The notes under the pieces are model-generated. The model worked only from the letters and a program-made list of their open reading frames with translations, was not told the DNA's origin and ran no database searches. From Candidatus Melainabacteria bacterium SSGW_16 (GTDB lineage: Bacteria > Cyanobacteriota > Vampirovibrionia > 2-02-FULL-35-15), in NCBI GenBank assembly GCA_004769085.1, contig DUDS01000019.1:446-64445 (forward strand): 64,000 bases of DNA, in the 5' to 3' direction. Shown here in pieces: positions 8,749 through 59,489 of the stretch. A program made the translations under genes and the position numbers. Position 1 is the stretch's first letter. Every line of letters begins with the position of its first letter.

Positions 8749-9160
8749 TTTCTTTTGAAGCCTTAAAGCTTATTGAGTCAAAGTATAAATCTTCCAGCGA
8801 TATTGATTTCAATATGCCATATATATTACGGTTTAATTTTTGCCACAGCTGATTTGTTACTTCAAAATCTCTGGATGAATTAGGAGCAACATTTACAGGG
8901 CCTTCAACAGCCTGAATAATATCTGCAAGTGATATTTGTTTTATATCCCTGGAGAGCACGTAACCCCCTGCAGGTCCACGCATGCTTTTTACAAGACCGG
9001 ACTGTCTGAGTTTTATAGCAATTTGTTCTAAAAAAGGTAGAGGAATATTCTGGGTATCTGCAATTTCTCTAAGTGACACAGGATTTTTTGATTTAGTCTT
9101 ATGCAATGCAATGCCAATCATAGCCTGGATTGCATATTGTCCTTTAGTGGTTAACTTCAT
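8729..9160 (-). CDS. iscR: Rrf2-family transcriptional regulator (IscR-like)
   Basis: MKLTTKGQYAIQAMIGIAL...VSLREIADTQNIPLPFLEQIAIKLRQSGLVKSMRGPAGGYVL is the Rrf2 wHTH domain. It lies immediately upstream of iscS. The start is set at MKLTTKG rather than the upstream in-frame Met at 9193. Confidence 0.75.
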   Translation of the reverse strand: MKLTTKGQYAIQAMIGIALHKTKSKNPVSLREIADTQNIPLPFLEQIAIKLRQSGLVKSMRGPAGGYVLSRDIKQISLADIIQAVEGPVNVAPNSSRDFEVTNQLWQKLNRNIYGILKSISLEDLYFDSISFKASKENETYVQ

Positions 9161-9246
9161 AGTTAAATTATAATATAGATACTTATGCGTCATTTGAACT
9201 CACCTTAAAAATCAAGTGCAATCTTTACAGCTTTTATAAGAAAACC

Positions 9247-9360
9247 TTAAGTGTGCTTACACAAAAGCGAAACCCATACCCTAAGCGCAGCGTTGGAAGC
9301 GCCAAGCGGACAAGCGGAGCATGGGTATGGGTTGAGCATAAAAAGTGTAAGCACACTTAA
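9247..9360. repeat. GC-rich ~113-bp nested-hairpin element, copy 1 (TIR ttaagtgtgcttacac / gtgtaagcacacttaa)
   Basis: Perfect 16-bp terminal inverted repeat. Inner stem aaacccataccc / gggtatgggtt. GC-rich core in an AT-rich genome. It lies 10 bp after the fliR stop and is near-identical in architecture and sequence to 22676-22788. Confidence 0.85.
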
Positions 9361-22426: not shown

Positions 22427-22466
22427 TCCCACCCAAATTACCCCTGTCAACTGACAAGTTCGTATG

Positions 22467-22493
22467 AAAACCCCTGGGAAACCAGGGGTTTTT
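22467..22493. terminator. Bidirectional Rho-independent terminator
   Basis: aaaaCCCCTGGgaaaCCAGGGGttttt: a perfect 7-bp GC stem, GAAA loop, and A-tract / T-tract on either side. It serves the convergent rod-protein gene (+) and carA (-). Confidence 0.75.
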
Positions 22494-22675
22494 CATTTCT
22501 TTATACCGGTTTTTGTCACGCTGCGTCGCTTCTTCGTTTTTTCATATCTTCTCTTAAGGAACTACGAAGACTCCTTGCTATTTTGATCTAATCATTTTCG
22601 ACGCTCAGATTTTCGCTATTGGAAAATCTTCGCTTTGATTCTAGTTTATCCTTGAATGTTACAAAATATTTTTGA

Positions 22676-22788
22676 CAAATGTGCTTACACAACGCGAAAC
22701 CCATGCCCGAAGTCGAGCGTTGTAGGCTTCGAGCCGTACAAGCGAGCGCAGGGTATGGGTGGAGCATAAAAAGTGTAAGCACATTTGA
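22676..22788. repeat. GC-rich ~113-bp nested-hairpin element, copy 2 (TIR caaatgtgcttacac / gtgtaagcacatttg)
   Basis: Perfect 15-bp TIR. Inner stem aacccatgccc / gggtatgggtg. It shares ...gcgaaacccat.ccc...gggtatgggt.gagcataaaaagtgtaagcaca with copy 1 and lies 14 bp after the carA stop. Confidence 0.85.
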
Positions 22789-22802: not shown

Positions 22803-23942
22803 TTAATCAATCGGCTTATAATTTTGTTTTTTAATTATCTCTACAAAATCTCTAAACAAATAATCACTATCGTGAGGACCGGGAGACGCTTCAGGATGAT
22901 ACTGAACAGAAAATACAGGAAGTTCTTTGTGTCTGAAACCTTCGTTTGTATTATCGTTTAAATTATAGTGTGTTATCTCGAGCTCTTTAGGTAAAGTATC
23001 AGCATCAACTGCAAAACCATGATTTTGAGCAGTTATTTCAACCCTACCAGTAAGAACATTTTTGACAGGTTGGTTTGCACCTCTATGACCGAATTTCATT
23101 TTAAAGGTTTTTGCACCAAATGCCTGTGCCAAAAGCTGGTGCCCAAGACAAATTCCAAAAACAGGGATTTTTAGATCATTTATTATTTTTTTTATTGTTT
23201 CAACAGCATATTTTACCGGTTCAGGATCACCAGGACCATTTGACAAAAATAACCCGACTGGATTTATAGATTTAATTTCATCAAATGTACTTGTTGCAGG
23301 AACAACAAGAGGAGCCAGCCCATAATGACTAAGTCTATTCAATATATTTTGTTTTATCCCGAAATCAATGGCAACTATAGGCCATGCTGGCTGTCTTTTT
23401 GGCATTGGTCCTCGGTATTTTTCTTTTGTACTAACAACCTTTGCAAGATCTGTTCCTAACATTAAAGGAGAATTTAAAACCTCTTTCTGAAGCTTATCCG
23501 GAGCCAGAATTTCAGTAGAAATTCCTGCCCTCATGGCACCAGAGGATCTGATTTTTTTTGTTATTGCCCTTGTATCCACACCACTAATACCAACCAGCTT
23601 GTGAGATTGCAAGAAATCACTTAATGTACCTTCTGCGCGCCAGTTGCTAATCACCGGGCTTAAATCTTTAACAACAATCCCTTTTGCAAAACTCATTTTG
23701 GATTCGTTATCGCTACTATTAACACCATAGTTTCCTATTTCAGGATAAGTAAATGTAATTATTTGTCCCGCATAACTTGGATCAGTAATAATTTCCTGAT
23801 ATCCAGTCATGCTTGTATTAAATACAATCTCTCCAAAAGCAGTCCCATCAGAACCAAAGTTTTCCCCTTCAAAAAAAGTTCCATCTTCAAGTACTAAAAT
23901 TGCTTTTTTGCTTTGCATCTTTAACATTTTACTTCCAGCCAA
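22803..23942 (-). CDS. carA: Carbamoyl-phosphate synthase small (glutaminase) subunit
   Basis: LVLEDGTFFEGENFGSDGTAFGEIVFNTSMTGYQEIITDPSYAGQI; the GATase triad region GICLGHQLL. Confidence 0.85.
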   Translation of the reverse strand: MAGSKMLKMQSKKAILVLEDGTFFEGENFGSDGTAFGEIVFNTSMTGYQEIITDPSYAGQIITFTYPEIGNYGVNSSDNESKMSFAKGIVVKDLSPVISNWRAEGTLSDFLQSHKLVGISGVDTRAITKKIRSSGAMRAGISTEILAPDKLQKEVLNSPLMLGTDLAKVVSTKEKYRGPMPKRQPAWPIVAIDFGIKQNILNRLSHYGLAPLVVPATSTFDEIKSINPVGLFLSNGPGDPEPVKYAVETIKKIINDLKIPVFGICLGHQLLAQAFGAKTFKMKFGHRGANQPVKNVLTGRVEITAQNHGFAVDADTLPKELEITHYNLNDNTNEGFRHKELPVFSVQYHPEASPGPHDSDYLFRDFVEIIKKQNYKPID

Positions 23943-38763: not shown

Positions 38764-38883
38764 AGATAATATTTTAACGCATTCTAGTAAAGGCTGAGCA
38801 AAGAATGTCTGGTAGCAACATCCTGAGCGTTGTAAATTGATGCACCAAATAGCCGAAGAGTCTGCATAGCAGCGACGAGGCGT

Positions 38884-40053
38884 TTAAGAAAAATAAGCAG
38901 AATTAAGTTTTACATAATCAAAACTCAAATCACATCCAAATGCTAGTCCTAATGCTTTGCCAAGTTTAAGATTTACAGTTAACTTAACTTCTTTAGATTG
39001 TTTTATTTCTTTATTAAGTTTGTTTTTATTAAACTCCACTGGTGTTCCATTTTTAAATACAAGTGTTTTATTTATAGAAATTTCAATTCTATTCTGATTA
39101 ACTAAAACACTTGTAGCACCAATTCTTGCTGCAGCACGACCCCAGTTAGGATCAGATCCAAATATTGCACATTTAAAAAGATTTGAACTTGCTATTGATC
39201 TTGCAATTTCATTTGCATCTTTTTGTGATTTTGCACCATTTACATACACTGTGATTACCTTATTTGCACCCTCACCATCAGCAACTATTTCTTTTGCAAG
39301 TTTAAGACATTGCTCATTTAATATTTTCTTGAAATTTGAAAATAAAGGGTCGTTTTTTTTTGTTATTTTCTTTTTACCGTGGCAATTTGAAAGAAGTATA
39401 ACCATATCATTTGTGCTCATATCACCATCTACTGATATAAGATTAAAGCTATTTTCTACAGCAGATTTTAATGCACTTTGTAACATAAGCTGTGATGCAT
39501 TAATATCAGTCATAAAGTAACAAAGCATTGTTGCCATATTTGGATGAATCATTCCTGCGCCTTTTGTAAACCCAACAATACTAAAGTCTTTCGTTTGCTT
39601 TTTAATAGTCTTTAGATATCTGTCAGTCGTAAGAATTGCTTTTGCTGCATTTTTTAAATTCCTAACATTTAATTTTGGTACAGCAGCAACTATTCCTTTT
39701 TCCATCTTCTCCATATCCAGATGAACCCCGATAACACCAGTACTTGCAACAAGCACTTCACTAGACTTTATTTTTAATATCCTGGCTGTTATTTCTCTGG
39801 TCTTTCTAACAGCATTTATACCTCTTTTACCTGTACAGGCATTTGCATTTCCAGAATTAACAACTATTGCCCTGATTTTTTGTTTTTTCTTTAATAAAAT
39901 CCTGTTTTCATCTACGCAGGCTGCACGAACTTGGTTTGTAGTAAAAACCCCTGCATAAACACATGGAACTGGTGAATAAATTAATGCCAGATCCGGCTTT
40001 CCTGTCCGTTTAAACCCACATGTAGCAGATGAATATAAAAAATGTGACTTCAT
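38884..40053 (-). CDS. argJ: Bifunctional glutamate N-acetyltransferase / amino-acid acetyltransferase
   Basis: GFKRTGKPDLALIYS, the ATMLCYFMTD self-cleavage/active-site Thr region, and 389 aa. Confidence 0.85.
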   Translation of the reverse strand: MKSHFLYSSATCGFKRTGKPDLALIYSPVPCVYAGVFTTNQVRAACVDENRILLKKKQKIRAIVVNSGNANACTGKRGINAVRKTREITARILKIKSSEVLVASTGVIGVHLDMEKMEKGIVAAVPKLNVRNLKNAAKAILTTDRYLKTIKKQTKDFSIVGFTKGAGMIHPNMATMLCYFMTDINASQLMLQSALKSAVENSFNLISVDGDMSTNDMVILLSNCHGKKKITKKNDPLFSNFKKILNEQCLKLAKEIVADGEGANKVITVYVNGAKSQKDANEIARSIASSNLFKCAIFGSDPNWGRAAARIGATSVLVNQNRIEISINKTLVFKNGTPVEFNKNKLNKEIKQSKEVKLTVNLKLGKALGLAFGCDLSFDYVKLNSAYFS

Positions 40054-55071: not shown

Positions 55072-55114
55072 AATGGTTATCTCTTATTAAACTATTATAT
55101 TTGAAATTTAAATG

Positions 55115-55250
55115 ATGGACTTGCTTTTTTTGCTTGCCCTATGCCATTCGCTCCTTTTCACCCTGCGCTAATTTCACATTGTTAATTATATGTGAAATTA
55201 GCTTGGGATACATCCGCTTCAGGCATAGGGCTCTCTTTTGCAAGTCCATT
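55115..55250. repeat. 136-bp nested palindromic element (three stems) in a divergent intergenic region
   Basis: Outer stems atggacttgc / gcaagtccat and gccctatgcc / ggcatagggc. Inner perfect 13-bp stem gctaatttcacat / atgtgaaattagc. Confidence 0.7.
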
Positions 55251-55319
55251 TAGTTAGATATTTCTATAAGGAGTTTAAAATGAACTCAAAGAATAATCAG
55301 CATGCTAAAATCGTGAATC

Positions 55320-56105
55320 ATGTTTAACATAGATCTATCAGATAAAGTAGCAGTAATAACAGGTGCAAGCCAGGGAATCGGAAAAGCAATTGCTGAGGTA
55401 TTTGCAGAAGCTGGTTCTTCTTTAATATTACTTTCAAGAAATAAAACGAAGTTGGAAGAAAACATAAAACAGCTAAAAGCTAACAGCCACAAGCCAATAG
55501 CTAAATACCATATTCTTGACGTTTCGGACAGTGAAAGTGTTGAAAAGATTTTTAAAGAGATTGGCAATGTTGATATTTTAATAAATAATGCAGGGATTCA
55601 CTTTACATCACCCGTTGAAAGTATGGATATTAAAAAATGGAAAGAATTACTCGATACTAACCTGAACGGTGTAATGTATTGCTCAAAAGCAGTAATTAAA
55701 ACCATGATGAAAGACAAAAAGGGAAGAATAATAAATATTTCATCAGTAAGCGGTAAGGTTGGTGATGCCTATGGAAGTGCATACAGTGCATCAAAATTCG
55801 GAGTAATTGGATTTACACAGTCACTGGCACAGGAAGTAGCTAAGCACAATATTACAGTAAATGCAGTCTGCCCTGGATGGGTAGAAACACAAATGGCAGA
55901 AGAAATATTACATGATAAAGACTATGCCAAACTGCATAACATTAGAGTTGATGAGCTTAAAAAAACATCACTTGAAGCAGTACCTATTGGAAGATACATC
56001 CACCCGGCTGAAATAGGCTATCTGACACTGTTTCTGGCAAGTGACTATGCAAGTGCAATTACTGGTCAATCTATAAACATCTGCGGCGGGGTTTATATGC
56101 ATTGA
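55320..56105 (+). CDS. Short-chain dehydrogenase/reductase (FabG-like 3-oxoacyl-ACP reductase family)
   Basis: KVAVITGASQGIGKAIA (TGxxxGIG), NNAG, and the catalytic YSASKFGVIGFTQSLA (YxxxK). Confidence 0.8.
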   Translation: MFNIDLSDKVAVITGASQGIGKAIAEVFAEAGSSLILLSRNKTKLEENIKQLKANSHKPIAKYHILDVSDSESVEKIFKEIGNVDILINNAGIHFTSPVESMDIKKWKELLDTNLNGVMYCSKAVIKTMMKDKKGRIINISSVSGKVGDAYGSAYSASKFGVIGFTQSLAQEVAKHNITVNAVCPGWVETQMAEEILHDKDYAKLHNIRVDELKKTSLEAVPIGRYIHPAEIGYLTLFLASDYASAITGQSINICGGVYMH

Positions 56106-58439: not shown

Positions 58440-59489
58440 TTAATTATAATTCCCACTTACAGCAGACGATTGTACTAATGATCTTGCTATACGAAAAGCA
58501 CTGGAAAAATTCTGATCACTATATATATCATTTAAATATGGAATTAACAGTTTTCTTGCATAAGAACCAACAGCTATTCCGTTAACCGGAAGGCCAGAGT
58601 TTTTTACATTGTCAAAAGAAAACTCTGTGGTACCGCCTGCAATCTGCAAATATACAGGCATTTTTTCTTCCTCTATAAGCTTTGCTACATGAAGGCTCAA
58701 TTCATCATTATTATGCCCGTTTTTACCTGCATTACTCCTGCCGCCACTCATGGGAATACCATCACACTGCAAGATAATATTACTCCCTGCAAGCTCAAAA
58801 CAAAGCCTAGCTGCATCCTTGATTTCAATATCACTTAATAAGCCACTTCCAAGGCTAAATGAAACCAGTTCAAGTTTCTTTACTAAATCTTTAATTTTGT
58901 CCCATATTTCCCTGATTCTTAAATAGTTTTTCCCAAAATGAAACTCAATTGATTTAAGGCCTAGAAGGAGCATATCATTTAAAGTATTATAAGGATCCAT
59001 TTTCACTTCAGTCATATTTAGCGCTTTTACATGGCAATATGAAGGACAGATACCACAGCCATAACATCTTTCTTTATTGTAAATAAAATCTTTCACTCCT
59101 TCATTTTCGTTAATTTTAAATGCTTCCGTAGGACAGACTTTTACACAAGCTCCACATACATCACACAAGTTTCTGTCTACTTCTACTTTTCTGAAATGTG
59201 GATCAAGATCAAGCTGGATGCTTGCCATTAGAAGAGGTGGTTTCAAATTATATTTAAATCTTTTATCCTTTTTACCAAACTCAATAGCTTTTTCAACACC
59301 ATTTTTTGCTGCAATAACAATATCTGCATGCGGAGCCAGATCAATAACATGTGCACCGGCTAAAGTAAAAATAAACGACAAATTTTCAACAAGTACATTA
59401 TCAGTAAAACTAGCTCCACAAATAAGTTTAAAGAAACTTTTATTTCCTAGTGCTTCGAAAACATGGTTTTCTTTTTTAAGAGTCAGCAT
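58440..59489 (-). CDS. 4Fe-4S dicluster ferredoxin-domain protein
   Basis: CDVCGACVKVCP and CYGCGICPSYC motifs. The flanking domains are unassigned. Confidence 0.45.
   Translation of the reverse strand: MLTLKKENHVFEALGNKSFFKLICGASFTDNVLVENLSFIFTLAGAHVIDLAPHADIVIAAKNGVEKAIEFGKKDKRFKYNLKPPLLMASIQLDLDPHFRKVEVDRNLCDVCGACVKVCPTEAFKINENEGVKDFIYNKERCYGCGICPSYCHVKALNMTEVKMDPYNTLNDMLLLGLKSIEFHFGKNYLRIREIWDKIKDLVKKLELVSFSLGSGLLSDIEIKDAARLCFELAGSNIILQCDGIPMSGGRSNAGKNGHNNDELSLHVAKLIEEEKMPVYLQIAGGTTEFSFDNVKNSGLPVNGIAVGSYARKLLIPYLNDIYSDQNFSSAFRIARSLVQSSAVSGNYN

Follow-up and report, generated by a model that had tools for sequence, protein, structure and literature searches.

Element A, as we call it here, is a small structured non-coding sequence that occurs three times in the window (the 64-kb stretch of Candidatus Melainabacteria DNA that was analyzed), in three unrelated contexts and in both orientations. 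It is multicopy, is an insertion relative to syntenic relatives, has kept its fold and is nearly unchanged at a site shared with a relative. The reading that we favor, with about even confidence, is that element A represents an uncatalogued family of small, non-coding, dispersed palindromic repeats of the REP/REPIN or MITE kind in a groundwater Melainabacteria-like lineage. This reading is based on the presence of copies at unrelated loci, the lineage-restricted insertion and the absence of coding capacity, together with the lack of transcription signals of its own, a REP-like placement and the other repeat families found nearby. The initial annotation, made from two copies, had proposed a REP/BIME- or MITE-like structured repeat or a small structured RNA. 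More copies, absence from syntenic positions in relatives, compensatory change in the stems and placement all support the structured repeat, so that the initial interpretation is supported in part.

Both of the elements originally reported, c1 and c2, are present at their positions (Table 1), and the perfect terminal inverted repeats of 15 to 16 bp described for them hold in each. The pattern formed by their termini, GTGCTTACAC-N70-100-GTGTAAGCAC, occurs exactly twice in the window versus 0.00 expected from shuffled sequence, and the inner stem (AACCCATACCC/GGGTATGGGTT) and common tail (GAGCATAAAAAGTGTAAGCACA) noted for the pair are found in both. Their nested-hairpin architecture is likewise upheld, with predicted folds of -56.1 and -56.3 kcal/mol for c1 and c2 (z of -8.3 and -7.4) that none of 200 shuffles equaled. 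Both are indeed G+C rich relative to the window (34.2%); measured from terminal stem to terminal stem, GC content is 49% and 52%, rather than the ~55% first given.

The count of two copies has to be revised. A third, divergent copy, c3, was recovered from the window by a covariance model derived from c1, c2 and one metagenome copy. With filters off, c3 scores 27.6 bits, and its fold is predicted at -58.7 kcal/mol (z of -9.1). The stem letters of c3 differ from those of c1 and c2, and its P1 pairing can also be written GGACTTGC/GCAAGTCC. The additional hairpin in its interior (GCTAATTTCACAT/ATGTGAAATTAGC, 55167-55202) resembles a nested insertion of another small palindrome. Element A is also found on two related metagenome contigs, one bearing a full copy (L8) and the other a partial copy at the orthologous carA site, and the known set is therefore four full copies and one partial. 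L8 is 87.6% identical to c1 over 97 nt, with five P1 pairs exchanged, and lies in yet another context. That a contig ends inside the partial copy is weakly suggestive of a repeat.

Table 1. Coordinates of element A, element B and ACAAG-loop mini-hairpins. Positions are those of the window unless a fetched locus (L number) is given.
Feature	Position	Strand	Details
Element A, copy c1	9247-9360	+	114 nt; covariance model 126 bits, E 5e-29
c1 P1 arms	9247-9262 / 9345-9360	+	16 nt, 100% complementary
c1 5' loop strand	9263-9266; 9267-9270	+	AAAA; GCGA
c1 P2 arms	9271-9281 / 9323-9333	+	AACCCATACCC / GGGTATGGGTT
c1 variable interior	9282-9322	+	41 nt, G+C-rich
c1 3' loop strand	9334-9337; 9338-9344	+	GAGC; ATAAAAA
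Element A, copy c2	22676-22787	+	112 nt; covariance model 122 bits, E 5e-28
c2 P1 arms	22676-22690 / 22773-22787	+	15 nt, 100% complementary
c2 P2 arms	22698-22708 / 22751-22761	+	one G-U pair, one A-G at base
c2 loop segments	22694-22697; 22762-22765	+	GCGA; GAGC
Element A, copy c3	55109-55252	-	144 nt, divergent; covariance model 37.2 bits, E 2e-6
c3 P1	55249-55240 / 55124-55115	-	ATGGACTTGC / GCAAGTCCAT
c3 5' loop strand	55239-55232	-	AAAAGAGA
c3 P2	55231-55222 / 55145-55136	-	GCCCTATGCC / GGCATAGGGC; letters unlike c1/c2 P2
c3 3' loop strand	55135-55125	-	AAGC+AAAAAAA
c3 interior	55221-55146	-	extra perfect 13-bp AT-rich hairpin, 55167-55179 / 55190-55202
Element A, copy L8	L008 7717-7827	-	full copy; 585-kb JGI contig Ga0080064_1000018
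Element A, partial copy	very end of 1.6-kb contig		orthologous carA site; relative's carA 88% identical
Element B, copy 1	22527-22645	+	core GACGCTCAG-(8-bp hairpin)-CTTCGCTTTG at 22598-22638
Element B	38771-38892	-	
Element B	L005 11110-11233	-	
Element B	L008 7866-7996	-	
Element B	L015 8999-9127	-	
Element B	L016 12346-12477	+	
ACAAG mini-hairpins	L015 5710-5730, 18404-18424		
ACAAG mini-hairpins	L016 5491-5511, 18220-18240		
ACAAG mini-hairpin	L016 18368-18388	-	
ACAAG mini-hairpin	L003 2452-2470	-	

The copies share one architecture: an outer stem, P1, of 8 to 16 bp (16 in c1, 15 in c2, 10 in c3 and 11 to 14 in L8, with terminal sequences that vary between sub-families); a G+C-rich inner stem, P2, of 10 to 11 bp; and a variable interior of 41 to 76 nt. 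An asymmetric A-rich internal loop is constant, with AAAAG-N-GA on its 5' side and N-AGCA-W-AAAAA on its 3' side. P2 is flanked by GCGA and GAGC in c1, c2 and L8 and by GAGA and AAGC in c3, which retains AAAAG-AGA and AAGC-AAAAAAA despite its changed stems. The most conserved parts across all copies are these unpaired loop strands, not the terminal repeats.

A covariation check, suggested in the initial annotation, was run, and both stems show strong compensatory change. In the alignment of c1, c2 and L8, pairing holds in 97.4% of cells, with double changes at 10 pairs, a level reached by none of 500 shuffles, and sliding the register lowers pairing to 16-43%. MAFFT left c3 out of structural register, so the four-copy pair table was made by hand; in this hand-made register, compensatory double changes fall at 13 of 16 P1 and 5 of 11 P2 positions, and the 98 cells include only two wobbles and two non-pairs. 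From the pairing and double changes in c1, c2, L8 and c3 we conclude that the fold of element A is maintained, with the qualification that the sample is small and that co-evolution of arms in a palindromic DNA repeat is not by itself proof of an RNA. The outcome that would have spoken against a conserved structured family, namely neither further copies nor covariation, is not what was found, as both exist.

Covarying stems around loop strands that stay constant in all four copies also bring forward a structured non-coding RNA family, trans-acting or cis-regulatory, as an explanation, one that we consider possible but short of probable. The function would then belong to the conserved A-rich loop and its GA/AG mismatches, which might for instance offer a platform for protein binding, with P1 and P2 as mere scaffolds and the copies arising by duplication. 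GCGA and GAGC could pair as two G-C pairs plus a tandem G-A/A-G mismatch, which, judging from RNA motifs in general, could adopt the form of tandem sheared G-A pairs, and high GC content within an AT-rich genome is the usual signature of a structured RNA. The strand bearing the A-rich loop folds better in four of four copies, by 1.7-7 kcal/mol, and on the same strand each of the two single substitutions in P2 gives a G-U pair, in line with an RNA read from it. The wobble evidence as a whole, with three to four sites favoring the A-rich strand and one the opposite, is not significant and too sparse for a strand call. Judged by the neighboring genes, transcription would run along one strand for three of the copies and along the opposite strand for c3, which argues against such an RNA family, as does the lack of an Rfam match.

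The sites of element A were compared with those of related species, among which the gene order around both fliR and carA is conserved. The spacer between fliR and rrf2 is 176 bp in the window versus 78 bp and 42 bp in two relatives (L015 and L016). The carA 3' site is without element A in L005, L012, L015 and L016, and also in a relative with 82% carA identity, in which the gene coordinates leave a gap of 13 bp there; in all, five relatives other than the one that shares the carA copy lack element A at the sites compared. Searching 84 kb from four syntenic relatives with the covariance model returned no members, with filters off too, where about four would be expected at the density of the window (probability of none, 0.02). 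At the carA site that is shared, the element is identical at 35 of 36 positions plus one indel (about 95%), compared to 11 of 15 positions in the spacer and 58 of 99 third codon positions of carA (59%; P ~1e-7).

Together, absence from syntenic relatives and identity at the shared site indicate that element A is a lineage-restricted insertion that has since been held near-constant, either by selection or by homogenization between copies. Conservation far above that of synonymous sites is equally expected of a functional RNA, and the strong conservation at the orthologous site, along with the similarity of c1 and L8 between organisms, counts in favor of one. An RNA gene fits less well with a family that has no member in the 84 kb from four syntenic related species and is missing at both orthologous sites, and three occurrences per 64 kb in unrelated contexts would be unusual for an RNA gene. 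As to the mode of insertion, TTAA flanks c1 on both sides, but it is palindromic and extends the stem; a TA duplication is possible at c1, c3 and L8. No target-site duplication flanks c2, and the empty sites of the relatives are too diverged for alignment.

Placement with respect to genes is regular for most copies. The flanking minus-strand genes named in the initial annotation were confirmed as encoding FliR (PF01311) and CarA (PF00988/PF00117), and both elements do lie just past stop codons, at distances of 9 nt from fliR (stop codon 9370-9372, minus strand) and 15 nt from carA (22803-22805, minus strand), rather than the 10-14 bp first stated. The neighbors of c1 are co-directional, and c1 also lies upstream of rrf2, whose ORF starts at 9193 with a likelier start at 9160; c2 lies between convergent genes, as does L8, 2 nt behind a stop codon. 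Thus, three of the four full copies are found 2-15 nt behind a stop codon, each time with the same strand toward the gene. Copy c3 shares the direction of a TRAM/uracil-5 RNA methyltransferase gene and lies 37-43 nt upstream of its ATG (55071), in a divergent spacer, on the other side of which a short-chain dehydrogenase gene starts at 55320. The proposal of a consistent 3'-untranslated position consequently holds for c1 and c2 and not for c3. REPs are intergenic, mostly within 20 bp of ORF 3' ends and between convergent or co-directional ORFs (PMC3733652); c1, c2 and L8 are placed in this way, and c3, in its divergent spacer, is the exception.

Two genes of the window deserve comment in their own right. 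The FliQ-family protein (PF01313; 10152-10931, minus strand) has 259 amino acids, roughly threefold more than is usual, and is extended at its C terminus by a proline-rich region; FliQ is also long in relatives (243-256 amino acids). The gene at 58440-59489 on the minus strand encodes an iron-sulfur protein whose C-terminal domain is that of LdpA (E 5e-17), a family known from the cyanobacterial circadian input pathway and present here in a Melainabacteria-like genome.

The position behind stop codons raises the possibility of a gene-end device, that is, a terminator or 3'-end stabilizer selected locus by locus, with P2 and the UUUCGCUUUU tail acting on the mRNA. We consider this unlikely. For c1, c2 and L8, the mRNA strand of the upstream gene would carry CUUUUUAUGCUC-P2-UUUCGCUUUU, so that the strand with U-rich flanks is that of the gene ending 2-15 nt away; on that strand, every copy has UUUCGCUUUU, UUUCGCGUUG or UCUCUUUU as the tail behind P2, and fliR and carA are without any other terminator-like site. 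This tail comes after P2 but is enclosed by P1 instead of trailing the whole hairpin, and P1 itself is not consistently followed by a U-tract. Consensus scans at c1, c2, c3 and L8 revealed no consistent sigma-70-like promoter or terminator; the terminator or stabilizer role proposed in the initial annotation is accordingly supported in its placement but not by a canonical terminator at any copy. The same scans weigh against an RNA gene, with neither a promoter-like site upstream nor a terminator downstream on either strand. Further evidence against a gene-end device is that c3 lies behind no gene on the strand concerned, that the G-U pairs turn into C-A mismatches on the mRNA strand, that relatives do without the element at both sites, and that near-identical copies at unrelated loci show copying and not local evolution.

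Comparison with known systems gives partial matches to several classes. REP, BIME and REPIN sequences of Enterobacteria and Pseudomonas (PMC3733652, PMC3116915) are, like element A, non-coding, G+C-rich, dispersed intergenic palindromes. The likeness extends to a position flanked by convergent or co-directional genes, no more than 20 nt from an ORF 3' end, to the proximity of an oppositely oriented related module (the hairpin of element B, described below, compared to the core of A), to persistence at an orthologous site with high conservation, and to stems that differ among sub-families yet remain complementary. By definition, a REP carries an unpaired tag, GTAG or CGTC (or TGTC/CCTC), immediately beside one end of its stem (PMC3733652), and no GTAG, CGTC, TGTC or CCTC is present at the flanks of P1 or P2 in c1, c2, c3 or L8. 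A REP unit is also only 20-40 bp, with a single 8- to 9-bp stem and a 4- to 5-nt loop, unlike the 112-144 nt and two nested stems of element A. REPINs consist of two inverted REP units, and the halves of element A are not inverted copies, as both of its internal-loop strands, AAAAGCGA and GAGCATAAAAA, are A-rich and mutually non-complementary. Element A is hence neither a tagged REP, since it lacks the GTAG or CGTC tag and exceeds the length of a REP, nor a REP doublet. For a REPIN/RAYT system a single-copy RAYT (Y1 HUH) gene with the repeats on its flanks is expected, and none was found in the window or in the 8.7-kb L008 locus.

Bacterial MITEs, such as the Correia elements of Neisseria, RUP of Streptococcus pneumoniae and Nezha of cyanobacteria (PMC10969869), agree with element A in their size of about 100-150 bp. 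Element A is also MITE-like in its perfect 15- to 16-bp terminal inverted repeats, its lack of coding capacity, its several copies per genome (three in 64 kb), its insertion polymorphism among relatives and the long hairpin that it would form when transcribed. It is unlike MITEs in that its terminal repeats conserve pairing only, with the internal unpaired strands conserved best, and in that neither a convincing target-site duplication nor a parent insertion sequence was seen in the window and fetched loci. A match to a known insertion sequence or MITE, which would have spoken against a new family, was not obtained.

Other structured elements offer looser parallels. The GC clusters of yeast mitochondria and the palindromic elements of Rickettsia are G+C-rich palindromic insertions that are scattered through very A+T-rich genomes and tolerated at gene ends. 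They are similar in size to element A but have no sequence relationship with it and occur in unrelated hosts; Rickettsia palindromic elements often lie in frame within genes, whereas all copies of element A are intergenic. Candidate RNAs from GC-rich intergenic regions (PMC6429828, PMC11109978) share with element A a GC island, a conserved internal loop, covarying stems and the absence of coding potential, and differ from it in that element A has no fixed gene association and no promoter or terminator signals.

The imperfect palindrome of 112-144 nt, with ends conserved in structure and not in sequence and a position just behind ORFs, also recalls an integron attC-like or other site-specific recombination site. 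The attC consensus is GTTRRRY for R' with RYYYAAC as its partner. The arms GTGTAAG, GTGAAAG and GCAAGTC of element A and their partners do not fit this consensus, the neighbors are conserved syntenic housekeeping genes and not cassettes, and the window contains no integrase. By these features element A does not qualify as an attC site, and a recombination site of this general kind is highly improbable.

Searches against databases did not connect element A with any described sequence, consistent with the earlier view that it could not be assigned to a named family. Scanning the whole window against Rfam 15 (4227 families) gave no matches at gathering score, and the c1 region searched at E values up to 10 gave chance-level matches only (E >1). 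The exact 21-mer tail GAGCATAAAAAGTGTAAGCAC was found in no genome among one per GTDB species and in no JGI metagenome. A looser pattern, GGGTATGGGTNGAGCATAAAA, was likewise absent from the GTDB species genomes and had three metagenome matches, two of them real copies and one a chance match in a coding gene (L009). In three scans of viral contigs the only matches were chance ones, and the covariance model rejected every one of them; plasmid and phage sequences gave no blastn match, and six-frame peptides of element A found nothing in a database of 5.8 billion proteins. The window contains neither tRNA nor tmRNA genes. A transposase, RAYT, integrase or reverse transcriptase was found neither in the 64-kb window nor in the 8.7-kb L008 locus, and no autonomous parent element was seen in the window or the fetched loci. 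The annotated genes of the window are all housekeeping genes; proteins of the window occur in identical form on groundwater metagenome contigs, and the nearest named relatives are 'Candidatus Melainabacteria' genome bins with 71-78% protein identity.

Two further identities were tried and rejected. A small protein gene is excluded by single-base indels between c1 and c2 that break every reading frame. The notion that P1 is an older host hairpin, with the core inserted into its AAAAG loop, found no 'empty' hairpins with A(3-7)G loops and is also countered by the presence of the same P1 in c1 and c2 at unrelated loci.

Element A is not the only structured repeat in these genomes. A second, element B, is about 120 nt long with two hairpins and compensatory changes of its own, and its model finds six members, two of them in the window. 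The core of B copy 1 scores 18.4 bits (E 0.03) and the orthologous copy in L005 29.6 bits (E 3e-5). The L008 and L016 members, which lie at unrelated loci, share 84% identity over 125 nt. Across the clade, B is found about once per 25 kb, in differing contexts and orientations, and it has no Rfam match. B copy 1 ends about 35 nt before c2, and the same B-then-A order is seen on the unrelated contig L008, at 35-45 nt, so that A adjoins B in two of its four full copies, at unrelated loci. In its hairpin module, B looks like the A core read in reverse complement (GCTCAA-P2-TTTCGCTTTTG), an arrangement like that of oppositely oriented REP units. The two elements have in common a hairpin module framed by GC-(GA/GA or UC/UC).

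Several other structured features were observed in the course of this work. Mini-hairpins of the form TTATAT-stem-ACAAG-stem-TC, with an 8-bp G+C-rich variable stem ending in AG, occur in relatives and not in the window, and ACAAG with its complement is the commonest 5-nt loop among hairpins with stems of at least 6 bp in the fetched loci. In L003 (87% carA identity), the position that c2 occupies in the window holds a different G+C-rich nested hairpin, at about 2300-2410 on the minus strand, with AAAACGCCTTCC/GGAAGGCGTTTT as the outer stem and inner hairpins closed by ACAAGC loops. In the window, about 37 nt directly past the stop codon of an FlgG-like gene (TCCCACCCAAATTACCCCTGTCAACTGACAAGTTCGT, 22427-22465) are near-invariant in L003, L005, L015 and L016 even though the proteins are only 72-88% identical, and a 1-nt indel speaks against a coding role. 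This conserved stretch is followed by a strong intrinsic terminator at 22466-22493. A perfect AT-rich palindrome of 90 nt in L011 (3553-3643), matched by the hairpin model at E 0.003, lies at a contig end inside a gene and is most likely an assembly artifact. With element A, element B and the ACAAG-loop mini-hairpins all present, several structured intergenic families colonize these genomes.

If element A is a dispersed repeat of the REP/REPIN or MITE kind, a plausible course of events can be outlined. New copies would arise through duplication or insertion at the DNA level, by means of an enzyme encoded elsewhere in the genome. This enzyme would most likely read the folded single strand and the conserved loop letters rather than the sequence of the terminal repeats. 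Copies would survive chiefly where they are harmless, namely a few nucleotides past the stop codons of convergent or co-directional genes. There, the CUUUUUAUGCUC-P2-UUUCGCUUUU strand would be transcribed as the end of the upstream mRNA, and the stable 3' hairpin would probably slow 3' exonucleases or give partial termination, as proposed for REPs. Element A is thus probably, and incidentally, a 3'-end hairpin for the upstream gene.

The conservation of the loops opposes recognition of terminal inverted repeats by a transposase and is typical of functional RNAs. More speculatively, and with some doubt, element A, and perhaps B, could be a selectively maintained structured nucleic acid whose A-rich tandem-GA loop docks a putative partner protein, belonging either to a new Melainabacteria RNA family or to a hairpin mobilization system. 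Such a mobilization system may differ from both RAYT/REP and terminal-inverted-repeat transposition.

Melainabacteria are a non-photosynthetic sister lineage of Cyanobacteria and are known almost only from metagenomes, and to our knowledge their non-coding DNA has not been described. Viewed from this window, their intergenic DNA holds at least two, and probably three, dispersed structured families (A, B and the ACAAG-loop hairpins). Repeats of this kind break metagenome assemblies, as illustrated by the contig that ends within element A; in addition, they mark the ends of genes and could be used to tell strains apart. The conserved loops, the covarying stems and the identity of about 95% versus 59% at the shared site point to element A being either a REPIN-like intragenomic replicator of long standing, in a phylum new for such elements, or a structured RNA of a new kind.
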